Positions 1,994-54,780 of a stretch of 64,000 nucleotides of DNA are shown in pieces (the first letter of the stretch is position 1; each line of letters starts with the position of its first letter). Both the position numbers and the translations under genes were made by a program. This DNA is from Patescibacteria group bacterium (lineage in GTDB: Bacteria > Patescibacteriota > Minisyncoccia > Phycocordibacterales > UBA918), in the NCBI GenBank assembly GCA_019752815.1, contig JAIELQ010000005.1:49625-113624 (forward strand). Direction: 5' to 3'. Under the pieces are notes generated by a model. It was given only the letters and a program-made list of their open reading frames with translations, was not told the DNA's origin and made no database searches.

Positions 1994-2007
1994 TTATCAT
2001 AACCATT

Positions 2008-3573: not shown

Positions 3574-3585
3574 CCAAATACATTT

Positions 3586-4494
3586 GTGGCACTCAAACAA
3601 ATTAAAAACAAAATAATCTCCACCAAGAAAACCGGTAAAGTTACCAAGGCGATGGAAGCAGTGTCGGCGGTAAAAATGCGCAAGTCACAAGCACGGGCTT
3701 TTGATAGTCGTCCGTACGTGCATGCAGCGATGCGGATTTTGTCACGTCTGTCACAATCGGGAGATATAACTACACACTCACTTGCGCAAAAGCGCGATGC
3801 TGGAAAGAAACTGGTAGTGATGGTAACGAGTGATAAAGGGCTCGCCGGAAGTGTGAACAGTGCCATCATTAAAACTGTTGAGACAATGCTCCGTAACGGA
3901 GAAGAGTTTGATGTGATGACCATTGGTCGTAAAGCCACTGAGTTTGCGGGACGAGCTAACCTCACTGTTTTAGGTCAATTCACGAACGTGAGTGATGATG
4001 TAACGGTCGCTGATGTCTACAATATGGCCGAGGTAGTGCTTGATGCCTACAAAAAAGCCGAAACATATTCCAAGGTTGAAGTAGTGTACCAAAACTTCAT
4101 TTCTACTTTTGAACAGGAACCAACGAAGCGTCAGATTCTCCCACTTGATCCAGCTGAAATTCACTACATCATGCAGGGTATCAAACCAAAAGTTGGGAAG
4201 TTCAGTGAGTCTGTGGTTGCGGCTGATACGGTCATCAATTACGAAATTGAGCCAAATGCAGCAGCAGTGCTTGATGTTCTGATTCCACAATTGGTGCAAA
4301 TCATGCTCTTCCACGCTCTACTTGAGAGTAAGGCGAGTGAACACAGTGCCCGTATGGTAGCGATGAAGAACGCCACTGATAAGAGTAAGGAAGTAACTAA
4401 GTCTCTCACCCTTAAATACAACAAAGCCCGTCAGGCAGCGATTACTGCTGAGGTAGCTGAGATAACCGGTGGTATGGAAGCAATGAAAAAATAA
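3586..4494 (+). CDS. atpG: ATP synthase F1 gamma subunit
   Basis: GTG start. N-terminal IKNKIISTKKTGKVTKAMEAVSAVKMRK and C-terminal ITAEVAEITGGMEAMKK are typical of gamma. Confidence 0.9.
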   Translation: MALKQIKNKIISTKKTGKVTKAMEAVSAVKMRKSQARAFDSRPYVHAAMRILSRLSQSGDITTHSLAQKRDAGKKLVVMVTSDKGLAGSVNSAIIKTVETMLRNGEEFDVMTIGRKATEFAGRANLTVLGQFTNVSDDVTVADVYNMAEVVLDAYKKAETYSKVEVVYQNFISTFEQEPTKRQILPLDPAEIHYIMQGIKPKVGKFSESVVAADTVINYEIEPNAAAVLDVLIPQLVQIMLFHALLESKASEHSARMVAMKNATDKSKEVTKSLTLKYNKARQAAITAEVAEITGGMEAMKK

Positions 4495-4495
4495 T

Positions 4496-4825
4496 ATGGA
4501 ATCAAATCGCCAAGAAAAATTTCAGAATTCAATTCGTAATGAATCACAGATTCAGCTACTTTTTACTAAGGCCATCAATCAAAGTGTTGATTTGTTTTCT
4601 GTAGATTTGCAAAAAAATGAGCTAGAGCAATTAACTGCCTTGGCAGCAGAAGAACATACAACACCCTTTGGTAAAGTTGCTGAAATGAGAAGGCTCGCTC
4701 GTGAGTCGGACAGAGCAGCATTTAAAGGAGTTATTAGTAATATACTTCTTACTATTTCTGAAAATCTGACTGATGCAGAACGAAATCAGTTCGCTGGTAC
4801 AAGCACAAGTTTGCTTGACATCTAG
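4496..4825 (+). CDS. Hypothetical protein inserted between atpG and atpD
   Basis: 109-aa ORF. Its start overlaps the atpG stop, and it sits inside an otherwise canonical operon. No recognisable domain. Confidence 0.5.
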   Translation: MESNRQEKFQNSIRNESQIQLLFTKAINQSVDLFSVDLQKNELEQLTALAAEEHTTPFGKVAEMRRLARESDRAAFKGVISNILLTISENLTDAERNQFAGTSTSLLDI

Positions 4826-6270: not shown

Positions 6271-6293
6271 AAGCGATAGCAGGCAACCTACTG

Positions 6294-6375
6294 CGTTGCG
6301 CTGCGGTAAAATAAGTTTCAACGTACAATAAAGTACGTCTCAAATTATTTTCCTTGCGCGCCTTGTATCTTACCT
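6294..6375 (+). repeat. Structured intergenic repeat, copy 2
   Basis: GCGTTGCGCTGCGGTAAAA..hairpin ACGTAC/GTACGT..TTTTCCTTGCGCGCCTTGTA. Begins 24 nt after the atpD stop. Confidence 0.7.
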
Positions 6376-6418
6376 ACTCTAGCTCCTCCTGATAATCTGA
6401 TATAAATTACTAAGAATT

Positions 6419-20410: not shown

Positions 20411-20743
20411 CTCCCCGGGCAGGATTCGAACCTGCGACCAATCGATTACACGAATCTCCTAATTTCTTAGAGGGGTGGACTATATCATCACCGGTTGTAT
20501 TTCTACACGACGGTGCAAGGCGCTTCGAATGCATTTTTGCATCCTACTCCCGTAAGGGATAGTCTCTGAACCTTCAATTGGATTTCTCCAAAAGCTTGGC
20601 TGCTGATTGCCCACAGCACACGAATGTCTGTTTCGGGGTTCCAGCAATTCACCTTGTTTGCAATAACGATTTCTCGATAAGGCTGCTATTTTGAACTTTG
20701 TCCACTGTTACAGTCGACTGCTCTACCGCTGAGCTACCGAGGA
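20411..20743 (-). tRNA. tRNA-Asn(GUU) interrupted by a group I intron. Exon 1 is 20710..20743, the intron is 20449..20709, exon 2 is 20411..20448.
   Basis: Exons on the minus strand read UCCUCGG-UA-GCUC-AGCGGUA-GAGC-A-GUCGA-CUGU / UAA-UCGAU-UGGUC-GCAGG-UUCGAAU-CCUGC-CCGGGGA-G. The acceptor stem, D arm and discriminator G73 match bacterial tRNA-Asn (compare E. coli UCCUCUGUAGUUCAGUCGGUAGAAC...). The intervening 261 nt ends in G and carries the group I R element GUUCAGAGACUA, the S element AUAUAGUCC, and P/Q-like elements AAUUGCUGGAA and AAUCAGCAGCC. Confidence 0.8.
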
Positions 20744-25923: not shown

Positions 25924-27819
25924 CTATACGATGCGGTCGGGGTTGATGGTTATGGCCACATACGGTGGCAAATGTCGCAACGTTTCGATCAGCTCTTTGG
26001 TGTCAGATCGGGGATCTAGTCGCAATAAACAATGTCGCAACTGTTCTTTTTGTTTGGAGTGAGGGTTGGTATAGAAGGCGCCTGAAACATTGTGAGCGGC
26101 AAACATTTTTTTGATTATAGTTTCGGTATCAGAGATGATTTGGGGGGCACCTTGCCACGAAAGGAAGATAAATTTTGCAAACGGTGGGTACTTGAGCATT
26201 TGGCGTAAATTAATTTCATCATCATGAAAACGATCTACTGCACCACGGCTGGCATACATGAGTAAGTCATCAGTTTCGCTGCGTGTTTGAATCATAACTT
26301 CACGTCCGGAGTGTTCCCGTAATTCGAGGATTAAACGAAACACCGTTTCATCTGCTCGCCATGAGGGAATAGCCCGTACCGCATCAAGCGACACAATTGC
26401 AGAAAGGGCGATATTTGACGGGAGGTACGGCATGACCATTTGGGTGGCGAGCAAAATTGCCCCTTTTTGTTTTTCAAAATCAGTTTTAATGACTGTGGCT
26501 TTTTTGTGAGTGGTGGCGGTGGTGTGGTCAAAAATACTAAGGGGAGTTTTAGGAAAAAGTTTGCGACACTCGTCTTCAACTTGTTGGATACCAATACCAC
26601 GTTCACGCAGACGCCATGAGCCACAGTTTTCGCAGACGTCCGCTGCGCGCACGCGCTTACCTGATGTGCTCGATACAAACCACCGTTCCTCCACATGTTC
26701 GGCATTTATGGTACGCAGGAGTGAATAGGGGGTTCCCGAATCAGGGCAACGAAATATAAACCCACAATCAACACAGGCAACAACTGGTGCTAAACCGCGC
26801 CTCGCGGCAAATAAAAATACGTTGTGACGACCTTCAAGTGTTGTTTCAATACGTTTAATCAACTCCGGTGAAAACAGCTGAAACGGCACATCGTTTTTTG
26901 GTTTGTCGGTTTGATTAACAATGGTGAGTTTGGCGGGTAGTTCCAGTCGTACCGGGTGCTCGCCATATGTTTGGTAGATGTCACTGCGTCGCTTGTGTTC
27001 ATCTTCAGTGGTCGTGAGGGTGTCACCGAGGATAATGCTGCGCTTAGAGACCGAGGCTAGTATTTTTAACACGATGCGGTGATCGAGGTTGGGGCGGGTG
27101 CGCATAATGTAGTGGGAGCTGGCCGCTTCTTCGACAATGATGGTGGTACTATCTGCTCGGTCGAGATAGGCGAAACTTGGCGTGGTGATGGTGAGGGTGG
27201 CTTGTGATAAGTCAGAAAACGCAGCGTAGGCAGCCTCGCGTTGCTTTTTAGTTTGGTGACTACTAAAACATATCACCCGTTCACTAATCCCACGTTCGAG
27301 TGCCTGGCGCATTTTTTCTACTGTGGTGCTCGTGGGTACCACGAGGAGTACCGAACCACGGTGTGCAAAGGCACTGCGAATAATGGTTTGGTAGCTAATG
27401 ATGCGGTCGGCTTCGCTTGCGCACAGTATTTGTGGCGTGCTGTCCTCGGTGGAGATGCTACTGCTGGTTGCTGGGTACGGGGAGAGTCCTGATCTAATGT
27501 CGGGGGGGAGTAAATTAAACAAAATGGCTCCGCGTTTGCTTGGGTTATCTTGGTACAGTTTTTCGACGGTCGCAAGGAGTGAAGGGGCAATGGTAACAAC
27601 GTCTTTTTGTTCTGGTAGTTTACGTAACGAGAAGGTCGCTGCTTTGAGGGCGGTTTTGGTGCTTGAGACGGCCTTGCCATCAATTACAATACCTTGAATA
27701 GTCTTGCCACGTACTGGAATCGCAATAATTGAACCAACGGGGTAATTTGTAGCAGAAAAGTATGACAGTGACTCAATTTGAATACCACGGACCAGCGGAA
27801 TGACTTCGATGACGAACAT
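25924..27819 (-). CDS. priA: Primosomal protein N' (PriA helicase), short form
   Basis: Helicase core with an atypical Walker A region. Cys-rich zinc-binding insertion CVDCGFIFRCPDSGTPYSLL...CENCGS. C-terminal helicase domain. 631 aa. Confidence 0.8.
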   Translation of the reverse strand: MFVIEVIPLVRGIQIESLSYFSATNYPVGSIIAIPVRGKTIQGIVIDGKAVSSTKTALKAATFSLRKLPEQKDVVTIAPSLLATVEKLYQDNPSKRGAILFNLLPPDIRSGLSPYPATSSSISTEDSTPQILCASEADRIISYQTIIRSAFAHRGSVLLVVPTSTTVEKMRQALERGISERVICFSSHQTKKQREAAYAAFSDLSQATLTITTPSFAYLDRADSTTIIVEEAASSHYIMRTRPNLDHRIVLKILASVSKRSIILGDTLTTTEDEHKRRSDIYQTYGEHPVRLELPAKLTIVNQTDKPKNDVPFQLFSPELIKRIETTLEGRHNVFLFAARRGLAPVVACVDCGFIFRCPDSGTPYSLLRTINAEHVEERWFVSSTSGKRVRAADVCENCGSWRLRERGIGIQQVEDECRKLFPKTPLSIFDHTTATTHKKATVIKTDFEKQKGAILLATQMVMPYLPSNIALSAIVSLDAVRAIPSWRADETVFRLILELREHSGREVMIQTRSETDDLLMYASRGAVDRFHDDEINLRQMLKYPPFAKFIFLSWQGAPQIISDTETIIKKMFAAHNVSGAFYTNPHSKQKEQLRHCLLRLDPRSDTKELIETLRHLPPYVAITINPDRIV

Positions 27820-28182: not shown

Positions 28183-28216
28183 AAAAAAGTCCTCACAAAT
28201 TGTGAGGACTTTTTTG
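28183..28216. terminator. Bidirectional terminator (murA on minus, small ORFs on plus)
   Basis: AAAAAAGTCCTCACAAATTGTGAGGACTTTTTTG. Confidence 0.75.
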
Positions 28217-28225
28217 TTGAAGTTA

Positions 28226-29725
28226 TTAAAACTCATCGAGATATTTAATGTCTGCACCGAGACTGGCTAATCGTGCAACGAGGTTTTCATAACCGCGGTT
28301 GATACTGTAGATATTACGCAGGACCGAGCGGCCGGATGCGCCCAACATCGCAATCAAGAGAATCGTAGCGGGACGCAAGGCGGGCGGGCAGATGAGCTCA
28401 GCTGATTTTAGCTGTGTTGGTCCGGTGATGTAGATACGGTGAGGGTCGGCCAAAACGGTGTCAGCACCGAGTTTTTCGAGCTCGGTAAAATAAATGGCGC
28501 GTTTTTCATACATCCAATCGTGAATGAGGGTTTGACCAGCTGCCTGGGTCGCAATCACCGCGTAGAAGGGGAGGTTGTCGGCATTGAGTCCAGGGTAGGG
28601 CCTGGAGTGTACTTTTTCTGGTGAAGCGTGTAGTTTGCTTGGTTTGATTTTTAAATCTACCAGTTTGGTGTATTCATTGACTGCTAGGTATGGTTTTGAT
28701 GTGCTGTATTGCAGACCCATTTTTTCGAGTACCAACAGTTCAAGCTCAAGAAACTCAATTGGAGCTCGGGTAATAGTGATGGCAGAATTAGTAACAATTG
28801 CAGCTGCAATAAAAAACATACTGTCGGTTGGATCCTCGGCCAGGGTGTATTCAATATCGACATTGATAGTACGAACACCGGTAACGGTTAGTGTGGTGGT
28901 GCCGATACCTTCAATTTGCACCCCAAATAATTTTAAGAAGACACAGATTTCCTGCACCATGTAGTTGGCACTCGCATATTTGATGACCGTTGTGCCTTCG
29001 TTAAGTGCTGCTGCGAACAGGACATTTTCAGTCACGGTGTCCCCGGATTCGTAAAGAATAATTTCAGACGGTTTTTTAAGTACGGTTGCGACTCTGAATT
29101 CTTTTTCTGTGGTTTCTATACTGACACCATAGTGTTCAAGGGCGTAAAAATGAGGGCGAACGGTGCGACTGCCGAGTTTGCAACCGCCTGATTGCGGAAG
29201 TGCAAAACTCGGCATAGTGTGAATCAGTGCACCAATAAACATTACAATACTGCGGGTTTTGCGGGCAGCATCAACATCGATTTTTTTGAGATCAAATTTT
29301 TTGGGTGGGGTGATCGTAATGGTACTGCCGCTCCAAACAATATGCATGCCGATACTCTGTAGCACCTCGATAATGCGGTGCACTTCCTCGATACGAGGCA
29401 TTCTGTGGAGGGTGGTGACGCCGCGGTTTAATAGTGACGCACATAGAAGTCCCACTGCACCATTTTTACTGGTATTAGTTTCAATGGTGCCAGATAGCTT
29501 CTTGTTCCCATTGATTTCGACATTAACGGTCCCAGGTGAGAGGGTGATGAGATTTTTACCGAGTGCGGTCCCGATTTTTTTCAGCATCTCGGCACTGATG
29601 TTTTGGGTGCCTGATTCAAGACGAGCAATAGCGCTTTGTGTAGTTTTAAGTTTTTTAGCGAGTTGTGTTTGGGTGAGTCCGACTGACTCTCTCAAATCAG
29701 CAATTCTGTTTCCAATATTTTCCAT
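28226..29725 (-). CDS. murA: UDP-N-acetylglucosamine 1-carboxyvinyltransferase fused to an N-terminal XRE-type HTH domain
   Basis: Residues 1-60, IADLRESVGLTQTQLAKKLKTTQSAIARLESGTQNISAEMLKKIGTALG, form an HTH_XRE. The remaining roughly 430 aa has the MurA/EPSP fold (SKNGAVGLLCASLL and related motifs). 499 aa in total. Confidence 0.85.
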   Translation of the reverse strand: MENIGNRIADLRESVGLTQTQLAKKLKTTQSAIARLESGTQNISAEMLKKIGTALGKNLITLSPGTVNVEINGNKKLSGTIETNTSKNGAVGLLCASLLNRGVTTLHRMPRIEEVHRIIEVLQSIGMHIVWSGSTITITPPKKFDLKKIDVDAARKTRSIVMFIGALIHTMPSFALPQSGGCKLGSRTVRPHFYALEHYGVSIETTEKEFRVATVLKKPSEIILYESGDTVTENVLFAAALNEGTTVIKYASANYMVQEICVFLKLFGVQIEGIGTTTLTVTGVRTINVDIEYTLAEDPTDSMFFIAAAIVTNSAITITRAPIEFLELELLVLEKMGLQYSTSKPYLAVNEYTKLVDLKIKPSKLHASPEKVHSRPYPGLNADNLPFYAVIATQAAGQTLIHDWMYEKRAIYFTELEKLGADTVLADPHRIYITGPTQLKSAELICPPALRPATILLIAMLGASGRSVLRNIYSINRGYENLVARLASLGADIKYLDEF

Positions 29726-29754
29726 ATATTTAATAGTAAAAACGACGCACTTCA

Positions 29755-29838
29755 GCGTTGGTCTACGGTAAAACTTTTCTCACCATACCAGTACGTATGG
29801 CTCGCAAAGTTTTCCTTGCCCGCCTTGAATTGCATTCG
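29755..29838 (+). repeat. Structured intergenic repeat, copy 3
   Basis: GCGTTGGTCTACGGTAAAA..hairpin CCATAC/GTATGG..TTTTCCTTGCCCGCCTTGAA. Confidence 0.7.
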
Positions 29839-29932
29839 TTTATAACTATCAAATAATATAGCATATCTGCTATATACATGTCATTTTCTAATTGGTGGAA
29901 AAGTGCTGAAGGTGGTACACTAGGGGCCTTAT

Positions 29933-30946
29933 ATGTTCGACAGATTTACTCCTAAAATTGGTATCGACCTCGGGACGACGAGTGTCTTAGTGTTTGTGCC
30001 TGGACAGGGAATTGTACTCAATGAGCCGTCGGTAGTAGCGGTAGGTGAAAACAATACGGTCCTCGCCGTGGGAGCAGAAGCCAAACAAATGATTGGACGA
30101 ACACCGGACACTATTCGGGCGTACCGGCCGATGAAAGATGGAGTAATTGCTGATTATCGCGTGACTGAGGCAATGTTACGATACTTTTTGCAAAAGGCAC
30201 TGAGCAAATACAATATTTTTAAACCTGATGTGATGGTATCGGTACCAGCGGGAGTAACCTCAACCGAACGGCGCGCAGTGGTAGAAGCCACGATTAAAGC
30301 GGGTGCGCGTAATGCCTACGTAGTAAAAGAACCAATTCTCGCTGCTATTGGGGCGGGGGTTCCGATCTATGAACCCCAAGGACACATGATTGTTGATATT
30401 GGTGGTGGAACGATTGACGTGGCAGTGATTTCTCTCGGTGGGATTGTAGCTGCAAACTCAGTCAAATGTGCCGGTAACCGCATTGATGCTGCTATCATTA
30501 ATTTTGTTAAAAAGACACGGAATTTATCGATTGGTGAAAAAACGGCTGAAGAAGTAAAAATCAAAGTAGGTTCAGCTCTGCCCCTTGAAGAAGAGTTGGT
30601 GATGGAACTCAAAGGTCGCGATGTCTTTACCGGATTGCCACGGACAACGGAGATTAAAACTAATGAAGTGGTGCGAGCAATTGCTGTTGAACTGCGTGAA
30701 ATGGTTAAAGCCATTAAAGATGTATTCCAGGATACGCCCCCAGAATTAGCATCAGATATTATTGATGGAGGGATTATTATGACCGGAGGAACTTCACAGT
30801 TACGAAATTTTCCAGAGTTAGTTAAACGACGGACGGGAGTGAAAGCACAGCTCGCAGATCAGGCGTTGTTTTGTGTGGTTAAGGGGACGGGTGTGGCACT
30901 GGAGCACCTCACCACTTACAAGCGTGCCATTTTAACAAAACGCTAA
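29933..30946 (+). CDS. mreB: Rod shape-determining protein MreB (paralog 1)
   Basis: IGIDLGTTSVLVFV..LNEPSVVA. Actin/Hsp70 fold motifs DIGGGTIDVAVISLGGIV and IIMTGGTSQL. Confidence 0.92.
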   Translation: MFDRFTPKIGIDLGTTSVLVFVPGQGIVLNEPSVVAVGENNTVLAVGAEAKQMIGRTPDTIRAYRPMKDGVIADYRVTEAMLRYFLQKALSKYNIFKPDVMVSVPAGVTSTERRAVVEATIKAGARNAYVVKEPILAAIGAGVPIYEPQGHMIVDIGGGTIDVAVISLGGIVAANSVKCAGNRIDAAIINFVKKTRNLSIGEKTAEEVKIKVGSALPLEEELVMELKGRDVFTGLPRTTEIKTNEVVRAIAVELREMVKAIKDVFQDTPPELASDIIDGGIIMTGGTSQLRNFPELVKRRTGVKAQLADQALFCVVKGTGVALEHLTTYKRAILTKR

Positions 30947-33156: not shown

Positions 33157-34740
33157 ATGTCGGAATTGGCAGCTACACTTCATCAATTTGCAACCGTTGA
33201 TAGTAATCAGTTTGTGATCAATGAGCGTAAGGGTAGTGTATTGCGCGCAGTCGAAAAAAGTTTTTCATTCAGAGAGTTTAATCCAAAAACGAGCGTCCCG
33301 CTGTCACTTACAGAATTATCAACCATTATGCACTTTACCGGCAATGGTATTACATCCTCGCCACAATATAAGCAGTCTGGAGCGATGACTGCAGCAGCGC
33401 CTACTGATACACCTACAGAAGGTACACTTTTGGGAGTCAATAAACACCGTAACACCGAAAAGGAGATTTATATGACTGAGCGTGATCGCATGCGACATTT
33501 TTACGTGATTGGTCAAACGGGTACTGGTAAATCAGTATTGCTTAAAAATGTCATCATTCAAGATATTTTAAATGGTGACGGTGTTTGTATGATAGACCCG
33601 CATGGAACCGACATCGTAGACGTACTAGGCTCAATTCCACCAGAGCGTGAAAAGGATGTAATTTACTTTGATCCATCGGATCTAGAGAATCCAATTGGGC
33701 TTAACATGCTGGAGTTTGATGAACAAAAACCAGAGCAGAAAACATTTGTGGTTAATGAATTATTTTCAATTTTCCAAAAATTGTATGGAGGAAATCCAGA
33801 ATCAATGGGGCCAATGTTTGAACAGTATTTTCGTAACGCAACGTTGCTCGTGATGGAAGATCCAGATTCAGGGAATACCCTAATGGATATTTCACGGGTA
33901 ATGGCTGACGCCAAGTATCGGCGGATGAAATTAGAGAAAGCTAAAAATCCGGTCGTGGTACAGTTTTGGCGTGAGATTGCGACTAAAGCCGGTGGTGAAG
34001 CTTCACTCGAAAACATAGTGCCCTATATCGTATCAAAATTCGACGTGTTTACCGCCAACGACTACATGCGTCCAATTATTGGTCAGCAAAAATCGGCTTT
34101 CAACTTTAGACAGATTATGGATGAGAAGAAAATCTTACTTGTGAATCTTTCTAAAGGCCGTTTGGGTGAAATTAATGCCAATCTTATTGGTATGATTATT
34201 GTAGGTAAAATCTTGATGGCAGCATTGTCTCGAGTAGATAATGAAGCGATGGACTTTCCACCGTTCTATTTGCATATTGATGAGTTCCAAAACGTATCAA
34301 CTCCATCAATTGCTTCAATTTTGTCAGAAGCTCGAAAGTATAAATTGAGTCTCACTATGGCTCATCAATTTATTGCGCAACTTGATCAAGATATTAAAGA
34401 TGCGGTATTTGGTAACGTGGGCTCAGTCGCAGCATTTCGAATTGGATCTGAAGATGCTCATTTTTTGGAGAGTCAGTTTGCTCCTGTATTTAGTGCAAAC
34501 GACCTAATGAATGTGCCAAATTGGAACGCTATGATACGGATGTTAGCTAATGGTACTCCAACAAAACCATTTAGTATTGGTACCATGCCACCTTTTAAAG
34601 CGGATATTACCAGAGTGGCAGAACTAAAAGCTATGTCCGCGAAAAGGTACGGACGTCCACGCGCCGAAGTTGAGGCTGAAATCGCTGCCCGCTATGCCAA
34701 GGAGCCTGTTTCGCTCCCCCCGCTAAGTGCTATGATATAG
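33157..34740 (+). CDS. FtsK/HerA/TraG(VirD4)-superfamily P-loop ATPase (soluble, 527 aa)
   Basis: Walker A HFYVIGQTGTGKSVLLKN. Walker B FYLHIDEFQN. Downstream ARKYKLSLTMAHQFIAQLD resembles the RKYG..L.TQ motif of HerA/TraG/VirB4-type ATPases. No TM helices. Confidence 0.65.
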   Translation: MSELAATLHQFATVDSNQFVINERKGSVLRAVEKSFSFREFNPKTSVPLSLTELSTIMHFTGNGITSSPQYKQSGAMTAAAPTDTPTEGTLLGVNKHRNTEKEIYMTERDRMRHFYVIGQTGTGKSVLLKNVIIQDILNGDGVCMIDPHGTDIVDVLGSIPPEREKDVIYFDPSDLENPIGLNMLEFDEQKPEQKTFVVNELFSIFQKLYGGNPESMGPMFEQYFRNATLLVMEDPDSGNTLMDISRVMADAKYRRMKLEKAKNPVVVQFWREIATKAGGEASLENIVPYIVSKFDVFTANDYMRPIIGQQKSAFNFRQIMDEKKILLVNLSKGRLGEINANLIGMIIVGKILMAALSRVDNEAMDFPPFYLHIDEFQNVSTPSIASILSEARKYKLSLTMAHQFIAQLDQDIKDAVFGNVGSVAAFRIGSEDAHFLESQFAPVFSANDLMNVPNWNAMIRMLANGTPTKPFSIGTMPPFKADITRVAELKAMSAKRYGRPRAEVEAEIAARYAKEPVSLPPLSAMI

Positions 34741-34745
34741 GTACT

Positions 34746-37502
34746 ATGAAAGAGGGCTATCCATCAAATAAATTGGATGTGGCGTATCGAGGCGACTTCG
34801 AAGACCCTGCGCGGACTGCTTTTTCTAATGCACAGTTGCCGCCCCAAAGAGTGACACTCGAAGATTTTGCAAAATATCCGTTTGGTCCTTCTGAGATAAC
34901 TTCAAAAAGTGATTACGTAAAACATGTGCTCACCTGGTTTTCAAAAGCACTCATCGATGCTGGATATAAACCCAATGAAGTTGATAATCTCATTCGTAAA
35001 TCATTAGATACTATTGATTTTAATAGACCGGAAGCGATGTACGTAGCTGATATCAATCGTATTATTCAAAATTTTTATAAGGCAGCTCCTGGTAAAAATA
35101 GTTCGACTGAGGCAACTGAGGTTCCAGCTCCAGTTGCTGCTGGGCAAGCTGAGATTATTGAGACTTCTGTTCAGTCAACACCAACACCAATAACGCCTGT
35201 TGTACCGCAACAGAGTGAAACGCACATTTCTCCTTTTGCACAAAAAGTTGAACCGTTTCGGTCGGCAGATGATGGTGTGCCCAAAGAGGTCACAATTAAT
35301 ACTAGAACTCCAGATCTGAGTTCGGTTTCGAGTGTAGAAATACAACAAGAAGAAGAAACTCTGCCACTCGCTACAGAATTTGATGATCGAGCGCAAGAAT
35401 ATGCCGAATACGGTAATCGTTCAATAAAAATAACACCTTCTTTCCCTGAAGCTACTAACGTGACAGCGGTTAAAAAAGATAATTTCGAAAATCCTCCTCA
35501 GGTGACTCGTAATGAACAGTTAGCTTCGACACCGCTCATTCTAACCCCTGAAATGCGGGTTGTTGATCCGAATGAACCAATTGTGCTTGAGACAGTGAGT
35601 GCTGATGACGAGGTCGCGTTGGAGAAGCGGAATGTTGGTTTAGAATATCAAAGCAAGCTTGATGCGCTCAACACACAAGCGTTTAATCATGAAGCGTACA
35701 TAGAATTTGTGTTTGATGTGCACACGGGTCTTAGACATGAATATGATGGAGTAATCAATTCAGCGCGAAATAACCTAAAGCGATTTGATGGCTTTTATGC
35801 ACCGTCCACAATTGAAAAACAAGCACTGCAATTATTATCAAGTCTCCAAGGTCAGTACGCCAAGATGCAGAATGTACAATCTGATTACGGTCTTATTCGA
35901 GGCGCACTGACTGAGAAATTAAGTGAGAGTCCTACCGACGCAATCGAAGCCGAAATTAAGTCTTTGTCACAGAGTTATCTTGATGCTACACAAAAACTTT
36001 TTGCAAACATTAGCAAGCTTGAAGGTTTGATAGAAGAAGTGAAACAAGAAGAAAAACCGTCAGTAGCAGAAGTGTATCGGGCACAATTTGAAAAACTGCA
36101 GACTGAAGGTAATCAGGTGTTGCGGTCACTATCAGCCAGTCACCCCTTGTATGAGCGGCTAAAGACAGCTGTAGAAGTTGATTTACAAAAAATTATTGCA
36201 CAAGCGTCTGTTGAAAATGGGGGAGATAAAGCGGTACTTGAAAACTCCTCGAACTTTATAGCGAGAAGGGATCAAATTAAAGAGCTGATTTCATTTATCA
36301 AAAAAGAACAAGAGTATCAAGATTTCTTTGCGCGTGCTCGGGCGCGGGTGCAAAAACTTGAATCACAATTTGAAATAATTCCGACGGGAGATAAAGGAAT
36401 GCAGGTAAAAACAATCCTTGCAGAAAATATTGTAAAAATTAAACAGGCTCTTAGTGGAACTGATTCACAAACCGCCACCGTAGGCGTGCTTGAGAACTTG
36501 AATCAACAAAAAAGCATTATTGAGATGTTACTTCGTGATTCAGAAGAGTCAATTTCGTCATTACCGCAGAGTGAGACTGTCGTACAACAAGAAGTGGGGT
36601 CAAGGGTGTTAACTGATGCTGAGTTGATTGCCGTTGTTGAAAAAACTCCGCTTGTTGAAAATATGGCAGAAGTGCAGGATCGCTATCAGATGCAGCGGGC
36701 AGAGATTGAAAAATATCTAACGTACCAACGTGAGCAACAGAGCAGGGAACGTTTCTCTGGACCCGTGTATGAAAAAGCAAAACGACTAGCAGGCATGCTA
36801 CATTTGGGTACGATTGGTAAAGCGGCTGCGGTACTTTTGACGCTCGCTGGACCAGCTGGTGTCTCGAGTCAAAAATCAGACCTGAATATTCTTGGTGATC
36901 TCAACATGTCAGCAGGTGTGTTAGCGCAACCGGATTTTGATTACGCCGCTATTTCAGAATTTCTCCGGACGGCTGAGGGATTTAGGGTGATTTCTGAAAC
37001 AGTAGCACCGGCAGTGTCAACTGTTGCTCCAGAGTTACCAAAAGTACCAGTGTCAGTAGAGACTGTGCCCGGTGTGATTTTGCCAGACATGGTCAGTCGT
37101 TCAAATGACGAAACCCAGGATATGCCATCAGAAATCTTTAGTGATTTAGCTGATGAGGTACCAAAAGACAAGGGTATTGAATTTGCAAGTCCAAATAAAT
37201 CTAATGTTCCAGAAGCTTTACGTAAGCCATACAAAATAAATTTTGGTGATAAATTCTGGGATATTAATGAGGGAAAAACGCTCGCTGGTAAATTGCCGGT
37301 CATGTCACAAATAAATCCTTCCTTAAAACAAGCACTCATAGACCGTATGCGCGATAAAATTAATAATGACAGAGCACTCAGAGACGCTATTGGCGGGTTT
37401 GGTAAAAATGCTGATCAGCTCCGTACCGGAGAATTAATGAATCTCGACAAACTTAATGAACTGGGGGTGAGTGTAGCCGCTGACTACAGTTATCTAAAAT
37501 AA
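34746..37502 (+). CDS. Giant hypothetical coiled-coil protein (918 aa)
   Basis: Long predicted helical or coiled-coil regions with one internal hydrophobic segment (AAAVLLTLAGPAGV). No enzymatic motif recognised. Start is 6 nt after the ATPase stop. Confidence 0.55.
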   Translation: MKEGYPSNKLDVAYRGDFEDPARTAFSNAQLPPQRVTLEDFAKYPFGPSEITSKSDYVKHVLTWFSKALIDAGYKPNEVDNLIRKSLDTIDFNRPEAMYVADINRIIQNFYKAAPGKNSSTEATEVPAPVAAGQAEIIETSVQSTPTPITPVVPQQSETHISPFAQKVEPFRSADDGVPKEVTINTRTPDLSSVSSVEIQQEEETLPLATEFDDRAQEYAEYGNRSIKITPSFPEATNVTAVKKDNFENPPQVTRNEQLASTPLILTPEMRVVDPNEPIVLETVSADDEVALEKRNVGLEYQSKLDALNTQAFNHEAYIEFVFDVHTGLRHEYDGVINSARNNLKRFDGFYAPSTIEKQALQLLSSLQGQYAKMQNVQSDYGLIRGALTEKLSESPTDAIEAEIKSLSQSYLDATQKLFANISKLEGLIEEVKQEEKPSVAEVYRAQFEKLQTEGNQVLRSLSASHPLYERLKTAVEVDLQKIIAQASVENGGDKAVLENSSNFIARRDQIKELISFIKKEQEYQDFFARARARVQKLESQFEIIPTGDKGMQVKTILAENIVKIKQALSGTDSQTATVGVLENLNQQKSIIEMLLRDSEESISSLPQSETVVQQEVGSRVLTDAELIAVVEKTPLVENMAEVQDRYQMQRAEIEKYLTYQREQQSRERFSGPVYEKAKRLAGMLHLGTIGKAAAVLLTLAGPAGVSSQKSDLNILGDLNMSAGVLAQPDFDYAAISEFLRTAEGFRVISETVAPAVSTVAPELPKVPVSVETVPGVILPDMVSRSNDETQDMPSEIFSDLADEVPKDKGIEFASPNKSNVPEALRKPYKINFGDKFWDINEGKTLAGKLPVMSQINPSLKQALIDRMRDKINNDRALRDAIGGFGKNADQLRTGELMNLDKLNELGVSVAADYSYLK

Positions 37503-41956: not shown

Positions 41957-41984
41957 AGAAGACATCCATAAACGACACACTTCT

Positions 41985-42068
41985 TCGTTGCTGCTGCGGT
42001 ACATTTTCTTCCACCGTACAAGAAGTACGTTTCCAGAAAATGTCCTTGCGCGCCTCGAATTGTACTCG
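41985..42068 (+). repeat. Structured intergenic repeat, copy 4
   Basis: TCGTTGCTGCTGCGGTACATTTTC..hairpin CGTAC/GTACG..ATGTCCTTGCGCGCCTCGAA. Begins 29 nt after the rseP stop. Confidence 0.7.
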
Positions 42069-42237
42069 TTTCTGAATGTCTAATTGAGCATTTGCGTTTA
42101 AAACAATAAAAGGTCGCTTTGCGGCCTTTTATTGTTTTGTGCTACACTTTGAATTATGAAGATTTTTAACTCTCGCCATCTGCCCGTGGGGTAATCTCAC
42201 TACTTAATGCTGTTTTTACTATTTAAAAAAAATTAAT

Positions 42238-43743: not shown

Positions 43744-44820
43744 ATGAGCTTATTCGGTCGCACATTTTCCAAACTGCTTAATTCTGTATCGACAGACATT
43801 GGGATTGATTTGGGTACCGCCAATACATTAATGTATGTGAAAGGTAAAGGAATCATTCTAAACGAACCAACTATTGTTGCTATCAACAAAAAAACGGGAC
43901 AACTCGTGGCAGTGGGTAATGAAGCGAGGGCGATGCAGGGGCGAACACCGACGCACATTGAAGTTGTGCGACCACTTGTTGATGGAGTAATTTCAGACTT
44001 TGAAGTGACAGAGGAAATGCTCGGCTACTTAATTGCTAAAGTTCGCAATGAGATGCGTACGTTGATTGCACCACGGGTGTTAGTAGGCGTGCCGTCAGGT
44101 ATTACTAATGTGGAAATGCGGGCAGCACGTGATGCGGCTCGTAATGCGGGAGCACGCGAAGTATTTTTGATTGAAGAACCAATGGCGGCAGCCATAGGCG
44201 CTAAGTTACCAATTGGTAAAGCAGTTGGTAGTATGATTATTGATATTGGAGGCGGCACTACTGATATTGCCGTCATTTCACTCAATGGAATTGTAGTAGC
44301 AAAAAATTTGCGCGTAGCTGGCGATCATTTAAGTGCGTCCATTTCAACGTATATTCGTGACCAATTTAAAGTGTATGTCGGTGAAAAAACAGCTGAAGAT
44401 GTGAAAATTGCCTTAGCTGCCGTTGAGCACAAAGATGGCGCCAAAGAACATGTTATCCGCGGTCGAGATGTAATGACGGGTTTGCCGCGTGAAGTAGTCA
44501 TCACCGATAGTGATGTCCGAGATGCAATTGCGCCTCAGGTAGATAGTATTGTTGAGGCGGTACGAACGGTGCTTGAAAAAACTCCTCCCGAAGTGCTGGC
44601 AGATATCATGCAACGGGGAATTCATCTCTCAGGCGGCGGCGCACTTATTCCTGGCCTGCAGTCACTTTTGGAAGAGGTACTTGAAGTGCCAGTAATCGTC
44701 GTTCCTGATCCGTTGCGTGCAGTAATTCGTGGAGCTGGTATTGTGATTGAGAACTTAGAATTTTATGAAGAAATCCTTATTGATAAAGAAGGCGAACTCT
44801 CGCCACATCTCTCTAACTAG
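43744..44820 (+). CDS. mreB: Rod shape-determining protein MreB (paralog 2)
   Basis: IGIDLGTANTLMYV..LNEPTIVA, DIGGGTTDIAVISLNGIV and IHLSGGGALI. Confidence 0.92.
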   Translation: MSLFGRTFSKLLNSVSTDIGIDLGTANTLMYVKGKGIILNEPTIVAINKKTGQLVAVGNEARAMQGRTPTHIEVVRPLVDGVISDFEVTEEMLGYLIAKVRNEMRTLIAPRVLVGVPSGITNVEMRAARDAARNAGAREVFLIEEPMAAAIGAKLPIGKAVGSMIIDIGGGTTDIAVISLNGIVVAKNLRVAGDHLSASISTYIRDQFKVYVGEKTAEDVKIALAAVEHKDGAKEHVIRGRDVMTGLPREVVITDSDVRDAIAPQVDSIVEAVRTVLEKTPPEVLADIMQRGIHLSGGGALIPGLQSLLEEVLEVPVIVVPDPLRAVIRGAGIVIENLEFYEEILIDKEGELSPHLSN

Positions 44821-45736
44821 AAAAGTTGGATTTGGAATTATCGCATTACTTATTTGTTTGGTTTTGTATTTTGTTGTACCAAAAGTAGTTACTGCCGTTG
44901 TGGCTGTTGTCTGGTATCCCTTTGATGCGGTCAGAGTGTGGGTTGCTGAATCAGGTAGTTCATTGCCACAGTATATTCGTGAACGAAAAGTATTAGTTGA
45001 CGAACTAGAAGCCTTGAAAATTAAAGTGGCCACCGAGCAGGGGACTGAAAACACCATTAAAAAATTGCAGATTGAAAATGATGAGTTGCGTGAACTTGCC
45101 GGCGCAGTGCCTGAGGCTCGGGTCCTCGCTCGAGTGATTGGTCGACCGGGAACATTACCGTACGATATTGTGATGCTCGATAGAGGTAGAACTCACGGTA
45201 TCATCGAAAACGCACCTGTGTTTTTAGGGGCAGATCAAGTGATTGGATTTGTCTCCAAGGTGAATGAAAAAACATCCTTCGTCACACTCGTGACTACTCC
45301 GGGATTTAGTTCATCGGCCTACGTGATTGGTCCAAATATTTATACCTTTGCCGAAGGTATGGGCAGTGGTATTTTACGTGTTCGGGTACCGCAAGGAATC
45401 ATGCTGCGGACGGGCGACATGGTGTTGTTGCCCGCAATCGATTCAGGTATCTACGGTGTAATTTCGTATATCGAAACATCGTCCACCCAGCCAGAACAGT
45501 ACGGTTTTGTAACTACAAATATTCCAACCCAGAGTCTCTACTATGTTTCGGTGGGTAAAGAGGGGATAGTCCCACATTCGTTTGCTGAAGCAGAGTCGCT
45601 CGTTGATACTACTCGCGAGTCTTTATTCACTGTCGATGTGCCACTGGATGTGCTGGTCACTCCGGAAACAAGTACGTCAACAGCGACAACTTCGACTTCT
45701 ACGGTGTCAAATGCGACCTCAACCTTACCACAATAA
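44765..45736 (+). CDS. mreC: Rod shape-determining protein MreC
   Basis: N-terminal TM helix, coiled coil (LEALKIKVATEQGTENTIKKLQIENDELRE), then a beta-domain. The real start is probably downstream of 44820, because the listed ORF overlaps mreB by 56 nt. Confidence 0.75.
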   Translation: MKKSLLIKKANSRHISLTRKVGFGIIALLICLVLYFVVPKVVTAVVAVVWYPFDAVRVWVAESGSSLPQYIRERKVLVDELEALKIKVATEQGTENTIKKLQIENDELRELAGAVPEARVLARVIGRPGTLPYDIVMLDRGRTHGIIENAPVFLGADQVIGFVSKVNEKTSFVTLVTTPGFSSSAYVIGPNIYTFAEGMGSGILRVRVPQGIMLRTGDMVLLPAIDSGIYGVISYIETSSTQPEQYGFVTTNIPTQSLYYVSVGKEGIVPHSFAEAESLVDTTRESLFTVDVPLDVLVTPETSTSTATTSTSTVSNATSTLPQ

Positions 45737-46008
45737 TGATCATGACAAATCGTTCTGTATTAATTCGGATCGTGACATTTCTGACACTGTGTATAGTGTG
45801 GTATTTTGATAGTGTGATAATTGCAGTACCGTTGTCAGTTTGGTATCTCTATAATTTTCGTGCGTATGAACTTGTGCTGCTCGGGCTATTTATCGATGCG
45901 TACTTCTTATCTTCTCTAGGTCTTCCATACTACACCCTCAGTTTTTTGGCGGCCGTTATTTTTATGGAGTTGCTTAAACCAAGTCTACGTAACCGAGATA
46001 TCATATGA
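45736..46008 (+). CDS. mreD: MreD-like small membrane protein
   Basis: 90-aa polytopic membrane protein between mreC and pbp2, with start and stop overlaps on both sides. Confidence 0.55.
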   Translation: MIMTNRSVLIRIVTFLTLCIVWYFDSVIIAVPLSVWYLYNFRAYELVLLGLFIDAYFLSSLGLPYYTLSFLAAVIFMELLKPSLRNRDII

Positions 46009-47711
46009 AATTTCGCTCCAATAAAAAAAAGTTTGTTGAATTAGACGAGATTTTGCTCGATGCTTCTAATTTACCGTCATTTAATACGGGTCGAATGGAG
46101 GGGCGACGGGAATTGCCGATTCGGGCCCTCAATGTCTATTTGGTGGGCATTTGTTTTACTATTATAGCAATAGCCTTTTTTGGAAAAATTTTTCAGCTGC
46201 AAGTGGTCGAAGGGGCCCGGTTTAGGACCATAAGTGATAACAACAGTGTAAACACGAACGTAATCATTGCCGAACGTGGGGTGGTATTTGATAGGCGGGG
46301 CGAACCACTCATTTGGAACGAACACGATTTTTCTAATCAGTATGATTTCCCTGTTCGTGCCTATACTGATCGGTTAGGAATTGGACAACTTATTGGCTAT
46401 GTTAGTTACCCGCAACGAGATAATAAAGGTATTTACTATCGCACTGAATATATTGGTCGTACCGGTGTTGAGAGTGCATTCGAGAGTGAGCTCCATGGTG
46501 TCAATGGTGAAAAAATTATTGAACAAGATGCCTTAGGGGCTGTTGTGGGAGAGCACGCACTGGCAGCACCTGTTGATGGTCGAGAAGTCACGTTGTCAGT
46601 GGATGCAGCACTATCTGAAGCGATGTATCAAATTATTTCAACCAGTAGTATCAGTGCAGGTTTCCGTAGTGGCGCTGGAGCTATTATGGATATTCATACC
46701 GGGGAAATTTTGGCGATGACAAGTTATCCATCTTATGATCCCGAAGTAATGGCAGATGGAGACAATACTGAACTTATTTCGCAATATAACAATGATGACC
46801 GGCTGCCGTTTTTGAATAAGGTGGTGAGTGGGGTGTATACACCGGGCTCGATTGTAAAACCATTTGTCGCGTACGCAGCATTGTCTGAAAAAATAATTGA
46901 TCCTAATAAAACCATTGTCAGTAATGGTTCAATTGTAATACCGAACCCATATAATCCGAGTAATCCATCCCGGTTTAATGACTGGCGCGCTCATGGAGCG
47001 ATGACGATGCGCGAAGCGATAGCTTTCTCATCAAACGTATACTTCTACATTATTGGTGGAGGGTTCGGAGATCAGCCGGGGCTCGGGATTACAAAAATGA
47101 GTCAGTACTATAAATTGTTTGGTATGGGTACGACAACCGGCATTAATATTGCGCAGGAGCAAGCCGGAGTTGTACCAACACCAGAATGGAAAGCAACCAC
47201 CTTTGATGATGATTGGCGTTTGGGTGATACGTACTTTACCTCAATTGGGCAGTATGGTTTTCAAACTACGCCATTACAAATGTTACGAGCGTATGGGGCT
47301 CTCGCTTCAGGCGGAACGTTAATTACCCCGCACGTGATTAAGGGAGAGGTCGGAGCTTCAGTTGACCTAAATCTTAACCCGGCACACGTTCGCATCATTC
47401 ATGAGGGGATGCGCAAAACTGTAAACTTCCCTGGTGGAACAGCGCGTGGTCTCGAACGCTCGGATGTCGCGATTGCTGCTAAGTCTGGGACTGCGGAAAT
47501 TGGTGCCGGTAACGCGTACGTAAACTCGTGGGCTGCAGGCTTTTGGCCGTATGAAGATCCCAAGTACGCCTTCATTCTTATGATGGATAAGGCACCGCGA
47601 AGTAACGCCTTGGGGGCAACGCGTATCATGGGTGGAGTCTTTGATTGGATGGCCATCAATCGTCCTGAGTATATGGGACTGTCTACCTCGAGTCCTGAAA
47701 TTACTCGGTAA
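46005..47711 (+). CDS. mrdA: Penicillin-binding protein 2 (elongasome transpeptidase)
   Basis: N-terminal TM helix. SxxK (GSIVKP), SxN (SSNVYF) and KSG/KTG (KSGTAE). Confidence 0.88.
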   Translation: MKFRSNKKKFVELDEILLDASNLPSFNTGRMEGRRELPIRALNVYLVGICFTIIAIAFFGKIFQLQVVEGARFRTISDNNSVNTNVIIAERGVVFDRRGEPLIWNEHDFSNQYDFPVRAYTDRLGIGQLIGYVSYPQRDNKGIYYRTEYIGRTGVESAFESELHGVNGEKIIEQDALGAVVGEHALAAPVDGREVTLSVDAALSEAMYQIISTSSISAGFRSGAGAIMDIHTGEILAMTSYPSYDPEVMADGDNTELISQYNNDDRLPFLNKVVSGVYTPGSIVKPFVAYAALSEKIIDPNKTIVSNGSIVIPNPYNPSNPSRFNDWRAHGAMTMREAIAFSSNVYFYIIGGGFGDQPGLGITKMSQYYKLFGMGTTTGINIAQEQAGVVPTPEWKATTFDDDWRLGDTYFTSIGQYGFQTTPLQMLRAYGALASGGTLITPHVIKGEVGASVDLNLNPAHVRIIHEGMRKTVNFPGGTARGLERSDVAIAAKSGTAEIGAGNAYVNSWAAGFWPYEDPKYAFILMMDKAPRSNALGATRIMGGVFDWMAINRPEYMGLSTSSPEITR

Positions 47712-51819: not shown

Positions 51820-52707
51820 ATGAAGCATATTTCAGTCTTGCCCCAAGAAGCAGTCGATGCACTCGCGCTTACAAAAGATGCGATTGTCGTTGATGCTACC
51901 TTGGGTGCTGGCGGACATGCACGATTGATTTTGTCAGAGCTAGGTCATAAAGGCACCTACATCGGGTTTGATGCAGATAGTACTGCCATCGAAGCTCTGC
52001 AAGATTTAAAAAAAGCCAAAGCCACGGTGCACCTGGTGCATAGCAACTTTGTGAATATTCAATCGGAATTGCAAAAGCTTCATATTGAGAGCGTAGACGC
52101 GATACTCGCTGACCTTGGTTGGCGTACAGATCAGTTTACGGATGGGGGAAAGGGGTTCTCGTTCACTTCAGATGATAGTTTGTTCATGACCTATGGTGAC
52201 CCGAGTCAGTATGCATTTACGGCCGGTGACATAGTAAATGGATGGGATGCAGATGATATCGCAAACGTCTTGTTTGGGTACGGTGAAGAACGATACTCAC
52301 GGCAAATTGCTAAAGCAATAGTCGAGTACCGTAAAAAAAATACCATCAAGACCGCTGCTGAATTGGCAGAAATAATCTTTACCTCAGTACCGATGTCGTA
52401 CCGGCATGGACGAATTCATCCCGCCACCAAATCCTTCCAAGGTTTGCGCATTGCGGTTAATGATGAATTCAAAGTTCTCGAAGATTTTTTAGCACATGCA
52501 TGGCAGTGTCTCTCGCCTAACGGGCGACTCGCCATCATCTCGTTCCATAGTCTTGAAGATCGAATTGTAAAACATACCTTTCGAAACTTAGTACAAGCTC
52601 AGTCTGGTGTCCTCATAACCAAACGACCAATTGTAGCAAGTAGTGAAGAACTAAAAGCTAATCCGCGCGCCCGCAGTGCCAAATTACGAATTATTCAGAA
52701 AATTTAG
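51820..52707 (+). CDS. rsmH: 16S rRNA (cytosine1402-N4)-methyltransferase RsmH (MraW)
   Basis: HISVLPQEAVDAL...VDATLGAGGHA SAM-binding motif and the ADLGWRTDQ..GFSF motif. Confidence 0.92.
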   Translation: MKHISVLPQEAVDALALTKDAIVVDATLGAGGHARLILSELGHKGTYIGFDADSTAIEALQDLKKAKATVHLVHSNFVNIQSELQKLHIESVDAILADLGWRTDQFTDGGKGFSFTSDDSLFMTYGDPSQYAFTAGDIVNGWDADDIANVLFGYGEERYSRQIAKAIVEYRKKNTIKTAAELAEIIFTSVPMSYRHGRIHPATKSFQGLRIAVNDEFKVLEDFLAHAWQCLSPNGRLAIISFHSLEDRIVKHTFRNLVQAQSGVLITKRPIVASSEELKANPRARSAKLRIIQKI

Positions 52708-52713
52708 TCGCCT

Positions 52714-53034
52714 ATGAAAACCATCGTCGCCATTATTAAACAACCAAGTTACGGATTCTATTTCAACGTTGGAATTATACTCTTCTTTGCCTTGGTTTTT
52801 TTGTATATGTATTTTCTGTCGATGTCGGTAGTGCACGTGGTGTTGCGCAAAGAAGTCATCCAAAAGGTAGGAACCGTTGAGTCAGATATTGCCATGCTCG
52901 AAGCCTCGTATATTGATGCGCAACATAAAGTTAGTAACAAAATTGCAGCCTTAGAAAACTTTACTGAAACCGAAGCCAAGATTTTTGTCAGCCGAACGGA
53001 ATCAACCTTGGTATTGTCTGACACAGCACGGTAA
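52714..53034 (+). CDS. ftsL: FtsL-like cell division membrane protein
   Basis: 106-aa single-TM protein between rsmH and ftsI. Call is by synteny. Confidence 0.55.
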   Translation: MKTIVAIIKQPSYGFYFNVGIILFFALVFLYMYFLSMSVVHVVLRKEVIQKVGTVESDIAMLEASYIDAQHKVSNKIAALENFTETEAKIFVSRTESTLVLSDTAR

Positions 53035-53038
53035 AACT

Positions 53039-54754: not shown

Positions 54755-54780
54755 TTTGCGCTTGATCACACGCATCTGCT

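Follow-up and report, generated by a model that had tools for sequence, protein, structure and literature searches.

A helix-turn-helix-MurA fusion in Patescibacteria and its proposed autoregulatory operator

Enzymes that also act as transcription factors (trigger enzymes) appear to include several proteins with a fused DNA-binding domain, such as BirA (biotin ligase/bio repressor), NadR (N-terminal HTH plus NMN adenylyltransferase), and PutA (RHH plus proline dehydrogenase). In these proteins, one polypeptide seems to combine an active pathway enzyme with a DNA-binding domain that targets the promoter of its own pathway genes, and DNA binding depends on ligands. MurA, which catalyzes the first committed step of peptidoglycan synthesis and is the fosfomycin target, appears to be regulated post-translationally (proteolysis, feedback inhibition) rather than by an enzyme-borne DNA-binding domain. 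No transcription-factor fusion of MurA was found in the literature that could be searched, which excluded most subscription journals. Here, we describe a MurA fused to a Cro/C1 (XRE) HTH, encoded in a 64-kb window (the whole stretch of DNA analyzed, 64,000 nt of contig JAIELQ010000005.1 from a Patescibacteria group bacterium). Comparison with about 160 related genomes indicated that the HTH binds a palindrome on the gene's own promoter, and thus that the enzyme most likely controls its own production. In contrast to BirA, NadR, and PutA, the enzyme is MurA, the DNA-binding domain is a Cro/C1 HTH, and the partner genes are mreB or murB.

The sequence-only reading of this locus, which had proposed a complete MurA fused in frame to an N-terminal XRE-family HTH, was confirmed. 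The gene is one uninterrupted frame, the N-terminal peptide on which that reading relied was present, and both domains passed profile searches (Table 1). A frameshift or sequencing artifact was excluded: all 120 best database hits (77–97% identity, from many independent assemblies) showed the same two-domain architecture, as did 77 of the 80 species-level genome loci, and the same uninterrupted architecture was found in hundreds of independent assemblies from NCBI, JGI, ENA, and Logan, including complete Nonomuraea genomes. Whereas the sequence-only reading had described MurA as normally a stand-alone enzyme, the fusion is not a rarity of this genome; it was found in at least 1,862 protein clusters across CPR/Patescibacteria and in cultured Nonomuraea. 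The 207-nt spacer between the fusion gene and the divergent mreB contained one of the four copies of a structured repeat, to which that reading had also drawn attention. However, this repeat is a genome-specific insertion into the 5′ leader and not part of the conserved regulatory architecture, because relatives at 95% identity lack it. Rfam has no family for it at the gathering threshold.

Table 1. Features of the fusion gene, the divergent spacer, and the neighboring genes (coordinates are those of the 64-kb window)
Coordinates	Strand	Feature	Basis
28183..28215	-	Terminator-like hairpin (AGTCCTCACA / TGTGAGGACT followed by a T-run) just after the murA stop codon	Read directly from the sequence; not reported by the consensus scan
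28226..29725	-	HTH-MurA coding sequence (499 aa plus stop codon)	Single ORF; Pfam HTH_3 plus EPSP_synthase; NCBIfam MurA subfamily model NF006873, 307.3 bits (cut-off 297)
28229..29521	-	MurA (UDP-GlcNAc enolpyruvyl transferase) domain, aa 69-499	PF00275 (EPSP_synthase) at aa 72-485, 150.5 bits
29165..29191	-	Loop SGGCKLGSR with the catalytic Cys182 (E. coli C115)	
29522..29548	-	Linker between HTH and MurA body, aa 60-68	AF2 pLDDT below 50 for aa 61-65
29549..29704	-	Cro/C1 (XRE) HTH domain, aa 8-59	PF01381 (HTH_3), 52.5 bits, E 4.9e-14 (cut-off 23); 55.4 bits for the isolated domain; AF2 predicts helices 4-14, 19-25, 30-37, and 45-55
29609..29644	-	Recognition helix TTQSAIARLESG, aa 28-39
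29750..29845	+	Structured repeat between the operator/promoter and the murA start codon (5′ leader)	Consensus fold with 25 pairs, 11 with compensatory changes; spacer folds with z = -5.35; absent from relatives at 95% identity, whose spacer is 87 nt; no blastn match in about 165 related loci
29855..29884	-	Promoter-like site of HTH-murA: -35 ATGACA, 18-nt spacer, extended -10 TGcTATATT; the -10 and TG lie inside the promoter-proximal half of the operator	Consensus scan, 10/12 matches with TG; same TGCTATA(A/C/T)T arrangement in aligned spacers of relatives
29858..29873	.	16-bp palindromic operator ATAGCATATCTGCTAT, proposed binding site of the HTH dimer	Conservation, co-variation, and loss with the HTH (see text)
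29892..29921	+	Putative mreB1 promoter (TTGGTG, 18 nt, TACACT), back-to-back with the murA -35	Inferred from reading the spacer and from conservation of the GTGGAAAA...GTAC(A/T)CTA block in relatives' spacers; below the threshold of the consensus scan
29933..30946	+	mreB paralog 1, divergent partner sharing the operator-bearing spacer	PF06723, 425.6 bits; 40% identical to the second mreB
43744..44820		Second mreB, preceding mreC

The equivalents of the catalytic and substrate-binding residues K22, N23, R91, C115, R120, D305, R371, and R397 were all present in the window protein, in 120/120 close homologs, and in 114/120 diverse homologs. The AF2 model (mean pLDDT 89.4, mostly above 90, but with low confidence over the Cys loop, aa 182-185) matched solved MurA structures, with the top 43 Foldseek PDB matches all being MurA (target-normalized TM 0.85–0.94). 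In the same model, the low confidence of the linker indicates that the HTH is tethered rather than docked. The domain was, however, only 24% identical to E. coli MurA in the MAFFT alignment, showed D369->A (as in the HTH-less relatives of the same subfamily) and changes at K160/S162-G164, so that its exact substrate is not proven. It scored below the cut-offs of the equivalog models TIGR01072 (298 vs. 392.7) and NF009470 (207.9 vs. 552). HTH-less orthologs kept the MurA domain at 75–77% identity with all catalytic residues, so the MurA part has an HTH-independent, presumably enzymatic, role. The closest natural solved relatives of the HTH were a lambda-repressor-like protein and the phage 434 repressor (E 2e-5). 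Its recognition helix is Q/T-rich (TTQSAIARLE), and the proposed target, a short palindrome with half-sites of about 6 bp over the promoter, is the usual arrangement for this family. In place of the usual small dimerization or sensor domain, the protein carries a 430-aa enzyme.

The palindrome (ATAGCA-N4-TGCTAT) was the only match in the 64-kb window, even when up to one mismatch was allowed. The exact ATAGC-N6-GCTAT pattern occurred once in 71/71 analyzable spacers of HTH-bearing orthologs, usually 9–30 nt before the ATG and overlapping TGcTATAnT, and 0 times elsewhere in 699,408 nt of related loci; no further targets were found within this DNA. In an independent metagenome sample, a perfect ATnnC-N6-GnnAT palindrome was found within 300 nt upstream in 50/72 HTH loci (about 62 allowing one mismatch), against a background expectation of 0.011 per window. 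A few HTH-bearing loci showed no recognizable palindrome (L100, L115 at -392 only, L121, L157, and L169). Related palindromes, including clade-specific variants (ATATCA.. and ATCTCA..), were observed upstream of fusions only 31–58% identical, and ATCTCATATGTGAGAT was identical in three GC-rich Nonomuraea species. Half-site bases co-varied with recognition-helix residues: TTQSA[IV]AR was paired with ATAGCA in 65/66, TSQSAVAR with ATATCA in 28/28, and TSQSS[IV]PR with ATCTCA in 8/8, although clades share both helix type and operator type by descent and these counts are not independent events. In addition, all eight relatives that lost the HTH (about five separate groups in an NJ tree) lacked the palindrome, with one of them (L082) keeping only the -10-proximal half. 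The divergent partner was mreB in 74 of 75 loci with at least 70% MurA identity (ortholog identity 79–98%) and murB in about 16 loci in the sister clade.

These results are best explained by a bifunctional trigger enzyme, a reading in which we have fairly high confidence. A catalytically competent MurA would carry a flexibly tethered HTH that, presumably as a dimer, recognizes the palindrome overlapping the extended -10 of its own promoter. Occupancy should block RNA polymerase, so that MurA concentration represses murA transcription, and it may also influence the back-to-back divergent promoter. DNA binding, dimerization, repression, and enzyme activity are inferred, and ligand gating is possible but unproven. 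Of the two functions suggested by the sequence-only reading, transcriptional control was strongly supported by comparative evidence, whereas generic nucleoid tethering was not supported, given the single specific site in the window and none outside the spacer in the related loci.

The alternative explanations appear unlikely. The MurA-like domain could be only a ligand-sensing module of a one-component transcription factor, with a separate canonical MurA performing the catalysis elsewhere in the genome. This situation exists in a minority of distant fusions (the proteins P0132, P0133, P0140, P0143, P0145, P0237, and P0250), which have lost C115/R120/R91; three of them sit next to a stand-alone murA(-murB) with ddl/Mur ligase genes downstream. 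Proteins of the P0132, P0133, and P0140 type share the architecture and the operator family (ATATCA-N4-TGATAT / ATAACA..TGCTAT) at their own promoters. We consider this reading improbable for the window protein, which keeps every catalytic residue, and the strong conservation of the MurA domain in orthologs that lost the HTH makes no sense for a pure DNA-binding regulator. In sister clades, the intact fusion is paired with murB. No second murA was found by tblastn in the window, which is suggestive but not conclusive; the rest of the genome could not be scanned. As weak evidence, none of the 120 best canonical CPR MurA hits came from a contig or a named lineage bearing an intact fusion.

The conserved adjacency to mreB could also be explained if the HTH docked MurA onto MreB filaments, as the cytoplasmic domain of RodZ, an XRE-type HTH, apparently binds MreB. 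This is very unlikely as the main explanation: the RodZ-type profile PF13413 (HTH_25) scored 15.9 bits (cut-off 24.6) with partial coverage of aa 10-39, against 55.4 bits for HTH_3, no RodZ structure was matched even at E ≤ 1, and the HTH is followed by the soluble MurA domain rather than by a transmembrane or periplasmic part. Moreover, the fusion and its operator persist in clades with no mreB nearby, where the partner is murB, murA-murB, or an operon in Nonomuraea, and the operator evidence is specific to DNA recognition. It is similarly doubtful that the palindrome belongs to another regulator or is simply a promoter element, with the HTH being vestigial or tethering the nucleoid nonspecifically. 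Half of the palindrome doubles as an extended -10, so part of its conservation is promoter conservation, but the distal half-site is not explained by promoter function and yet was invariant in 71/71 loci. The loss of the palindrome in the HTH-less relatives, the tracking of recognition-helix residues by half-site bases, and the strong conservation of the HTH with 434-repressor-like DNA-contact positions also argue against this possibility.

A more speculative possibility, which we regard as tentative, is that the MurA body acts as the sensor of a one-component regulator, its open/closed state, set by UDP-GlcNAc, PEP, or the feedback ligand UDP-MurNAc, gating HTH binding to the operator. CPR bacteria, which have very few regulators, would thereby tune transcription of murA and of the divergent mreB or murB directly to the cell-wall precursor pool. 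The family would also record a full evolutionary series: stand-alone enzyme, bifunctional enzyme-repressor, and catalytically dead MurA-derived transcription factor controlling murA-murB and ddl/mur ligase operons. A horizontally transferred copy in culturable Nonomuraea would make the system experimentally tractable.

The operator and its clade-specific variants provide an immediately testable protein-DNA recognition code. The dead paralogs, which are pure regulators, show how an enzyme can become a transcription factor, and they also suggest that many database entries named UDP-N-acetylglucosamine 1-carboxyvinyltransferase are mis-annotated regulators. The fusion would be a minimal, self-contained transcriptional feedback loop on cell-wall precursor synthesis, and it appears to be the standard form of MurA in a large part of the CPR/Patescibacteria, organisms with tiny genomes whose gene regulation is largely unknown.

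The minus-strand ORF encoding HTH-MurA formed one uninterrupted frame of 499 aa. Pfam placed an HTH_3 (Cro/C1, XRE) domain at aa 8-59 (52.5 bits, E 4.9e-14) and an EPSP_synthase domain at aa 72-485 (150.5 bits). The NCBIfam MurA subfamily model NF006873 was passed (307.3 vs. 297 bits), whereas the stricter equivalog model TIGR01072 was not (298 vs. 392.7). An mreB gene (mreB1; PF06723, 425.6 bits) was located divergently, 207 nt away, and a second mreB, 40% identical to the first, occupied the canonical position before mreC and a PBP2-like gene. Thus, the sequence-only reading, which described a MurA fused to an N-terminal XRE-family helix-turn-helix and divergent from mreB, was accurate. The mreB-mreC-PBP2 cluster and the start of a dcw cluster show that this small-genome organism has a full wall-elongation and division program with two MreB paralogs. 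A group I intron match was also found in the window (RF00028, 81.6 bits, full-length model), between a Mu Gam-like gene and a MarR-like gene; ARAGORN found no tRNA there, so its host gene is unidentified.

Coordinates of the HTH-MurA gene, its control region and other features of the window, and of comparable features in related loci (L handles denote individual loci from other genomes).
Feature	Location	Position	Strand
HTH-MurA ORF	window	28226..29725	-
Palindrome ATAGCATATCTGCTAT	window	29858-29873	
Promoter-like site of murA, ATGACA-18-TATATT	window	29884..29855	-
murA -35	window	29879-29884	
Putative mreB1 promoter, TTGGTG-18-TACACT	window	29892-29921	facing mreB1
mreB1	window	29933..30946	
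Second mreB	window	43744..44820	
mreB-mreC-PBP2 cluster and start of dcw cluster (mraW, FtsI-like PBP, Mur ligase)	window	43744-47711 and 51820-56318	+
Structured repeat, four copies (approximate limits)	window	840-935, 6288-6383, 29750-29845, 41980-42075	same orientation
Group I intron match (RF00028)	window	20456-20703	-
631-aa protein	window	25924-27819	-
Type IV secretion-like genes	window	33157-37502	+
Type IV secretion-like genes	L001/L002	1959-4803	
HTH-MurA of Nonomuraea spp.	L005; L173; L174	8001-9530 (L005)	
Catalytically dead HTH-MurA-like proteins	L089; L090; L091	1624-4503 (L089); 1558-4530 (L091)	

The fusion was neither an artefact nor rare. All 120 best hits in a collection of 5.8 billion proteins (77-97% identity; NCBI, JGI, ENA, Logan) carried both domains, and those with names were Candidatus Kaiserbacteria, Paceibacteria or Nomurabacteria. 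Among GTDB contigs with one genome per species, 77 of the 80 best loci had the full fusion, the closest (95%) being from Patescibacteria and Kaiserbacteria MAGs. An exhaustive search of 50%-identity representatives found the fusion in several separate clusters down to approximately 31% identity, including one cluster of 246 members from cultured Nonomuraea (Actinomycetota) that was 53% identical over both domains. A profile search returned at least 1,862 clusters (E ≤ 1e-10). All of the top 120 had HTH plus EPSP_synthase and were approximately 500-515 aa long, and the names given included Liptonbacteria, Paceibacterota and Saccharimonadales. Databases call these proteins "UDP-N-acetylglucosamine 1-carboxyvinyltransferase" or "helix-turn-helix domain-containing protein," and full-text literature searches found no description of the architecture.

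When the protein was aligned to E. coli MurA, the window protein was found to keep K22, N23, R91, the GGC115 loop (its Cys182), R120, D305, R371 and R397, whereas D369 was Ala, as in the closest HTH-less members of the same subfamily. The same eight-residue signature was intact in 120/120 close and 114/120 diverse fusions. An AlphaFold2 model built from an 80-sequence alignment (mean pLDDT 89.4, pTM 0.84) gave a confident MurA body, although confidence was low over the Cys loop (aa 182-185). The top 43 Foldseek matches in the PDB were all MurA (target-normalised TM 0.85-0.94), ahead of NikO and AroA. The domain was nevertheless divergent (24% identical to E. coli MurA in the MAFFT alignment).

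The isolated N-terminus scored 55.4 bits on HTH_3, and its best natural solved relatives were a lambda-repressor-like protein and the phage 434 repressor (E 2e-5). The RodZ-type profile HTH_25 reached only 15.9 bits (cut-off 24.6), and no RodZ chain was matched at E ≤ 1. In the model, the HTH was a separate four-helix module (pLDDT 66-85) joined by a linker with pLDDT below 50 (aa 61-65), and it is therefore predicted to be tethered rather than packed on the enzyme.

When the mreB-murA spacers of relatives were aligned, most of them 70-130 nt long, we observed a 16-bp palindrome, ATAGC-N6-GCTAT, usually 9-30 nt before the murA ATG, with its promoter-proximal half forming an extended -10 (TGcTATAnT). 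The exact pattern occurred once in 71 of 71 analysable spacers of HTH-bearing orthologs and never elsewhere in 699,408 nt of flanking DNA. In the window it was the only match in 64 kb even with one mismatch allowed, and it overlapped the -10 and TG of the promoter-like site of murA.

A similar motif was found across clades. The 58%-identity clade (L084-L088) had ATATCA-N4-TGATAT, as did loci encoding proteins only 31-40% identical (L008, L089, L090 and L092), whereas L091 had ATAACA..TGCTAT. Three GC-rich Nonomuraea species had an identical AT-rich ATCTCATATGTGAGAT just before the start codon, while the flanks differed. The Nonomuraea HTH-MurA kept its catalytic residues and sat between a formyltransferase/enoyl-CoA-hydratase fusion gene and a phage-type integrase, which is probably the result of horizontal transfer between CPR and actinomycetes and offers a tractable model. 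In an independent sample of 80 metagenomic loci, a perfect ATnnC-N6-GnnAT palindrome was located within 300 nt upstream in 50 of 72 HTH-bearing genes (approximately 62 if one mismatch is allowed), against a background expectation of 0.011 per window. Several of the remaining loci had imperfect sites, or sites displaced upstream by inserted elements.

Both the loss and the co-variation of the palindrome linked it to the fused HTH. Eight relatives lacked the HTH (L081-L083, with MurA domains 75-77% identical to the window protein, and L136, L150, L151, L167 and L170), and none of them had the palindrome; L082 kept only the half that doubles as the -10. In a neighbor-joining tree, which has no support values, these eight fell into approximately five separate groups nested among HTH-bearing sequences, which implies several independent losses. 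Across 158 HTH-bearing loci, 149 had the palindrome within 500 nt upstream. The recognition helix TTQSA[IV]AR was paired with ATAGCA (65 of 66 perfect sites), TSQSAVAR with ATATCA (28 of 28) and TSQSS[IV]PR with ATCTCA (8 of 8). These counts are inflated by shared descent, but the pattern is what direct base readout predicts.

In 74 of 75 loci with at least 70% MurA identity, the divergent neighbor was the mreB1 ortholog (79-98% identical, more conserved than MurA itself), and the one exception was cut at a contig end. The 631-aa protein, which had no Pfam match, was the conserved downstream neighbor in nearly all close relatives (45-85% identity); by reading of the sequence only, it contains CxxC...CxxC motifs reminiscent of PriA. 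Type IV secretion-like genes, encoding a TraG/VirD4-like coupling protein and a 918-aa protein, were close to mreB1 in the window, and the 914-920-aa gene in the corresponding position of the relatives L001/L002 carried DUF8128/DUF87 hits and was directly next to mreB1. In the sister clade, the divergent neighbor was murB in approximately 16 loci and mreB in approximately 20. In the window, the murA and mreB1 promoters appeared to be back-to-back, the conserved site facing mreB1 being inferred from reading the sequence. The palindrome was inside the murA promoter and 18 nt from the putative mreB1 -35. Thus, autoregulation of murA is the firm inference, and an effect on mreB1 is only possible.

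The spacer also contained one of the four intergenic copies of a structured repeat of roughly 95 nt. The copies shared a 25-pair consensus fold in which 11 pairs showed compensatory changes, and no Rfam family was matched at gathering threshold. In this genome the element sits between the operator/promoter and the murA ATG, that is, in the 5′ leader. Relatives at 95% identity had an 87-nt spacer without it, and it had no blastn match in approximately 165 related loci. It is therefore a recent, genome-specific insertion, resembling a mobile or REP-like structured element, and not part of the conserved control region. Unrelated insertions occupied the same position in three sister-clade loci (L119, L120 and L159), where a GC-rich element (TATGAGTAGGT.TGGGCGCGC...) separated the operator from the start codon, so the murA 5′ leader seems to be a recurrent insertion target.

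A minority of the fusions looked like pure regulators. The distant fusion proteins P0132, P0133, P0140, P0143, P0145, P0237 and P0250 have lost C115, R120 and R91, and the alignment was well anchored around the loop. P0132 and P0140 were divergent from a stand-alone murA-murB pair, and an EPSP_synthase gene was also present upstream of P0133. Mur ligase genes followed P0132, P0133 and P0140, and a ddl gene followed P0132. These proteins, annotated in databases as MurA, are likely MurA-derived transcription factors of the mur genes and probable mis-annotations. A search with that stand-alone MurA returned WWE3, Collierbacteria and other CPR proteins, and its only contig-length coincidences were with dead fusions (22,241; 34,766; 66,416) and none with intact-fusion contigs. 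This evidence is weak, but it fits the intact fusion being the housekeeping MurA in its lineages; no second murA was found within the window, the only part of this genome that was scanned.

Overall, the fusion is widespread rather than unique and is already present in databases, though apparently undescribed, and the suggestion of the sequence-only reading that it couples cell-wall precursor synthesis to transcriptional control was supported. We consider it likely that the protein is an active MurA whose tethered Cro/C1 HTH binds, presumably as a dimer, to the palindrome over its own extended -10 and represses murA transcription. This model rests on the architecture, the integrity of the active site, the predicted fold, and the position, conservation, co-variation and co-loss of the operator, whereas binding, dimerisation, the sign of regulation and catalysis are inferred. 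Gating by UDP-GlcNAc, PEP or UDP-MurNAc is a purely inferred but attractive addition, because MurA may undergo large ligand-induced closure and bind UDP-MurNAc tightly (PDB entries of that complex were among the structural matches). The logic would be the same as that of trigger enzymes such as BirA, NadR and PutA, here built on MurA, and would give homeostatic control of the first committed step of wall synthesis.
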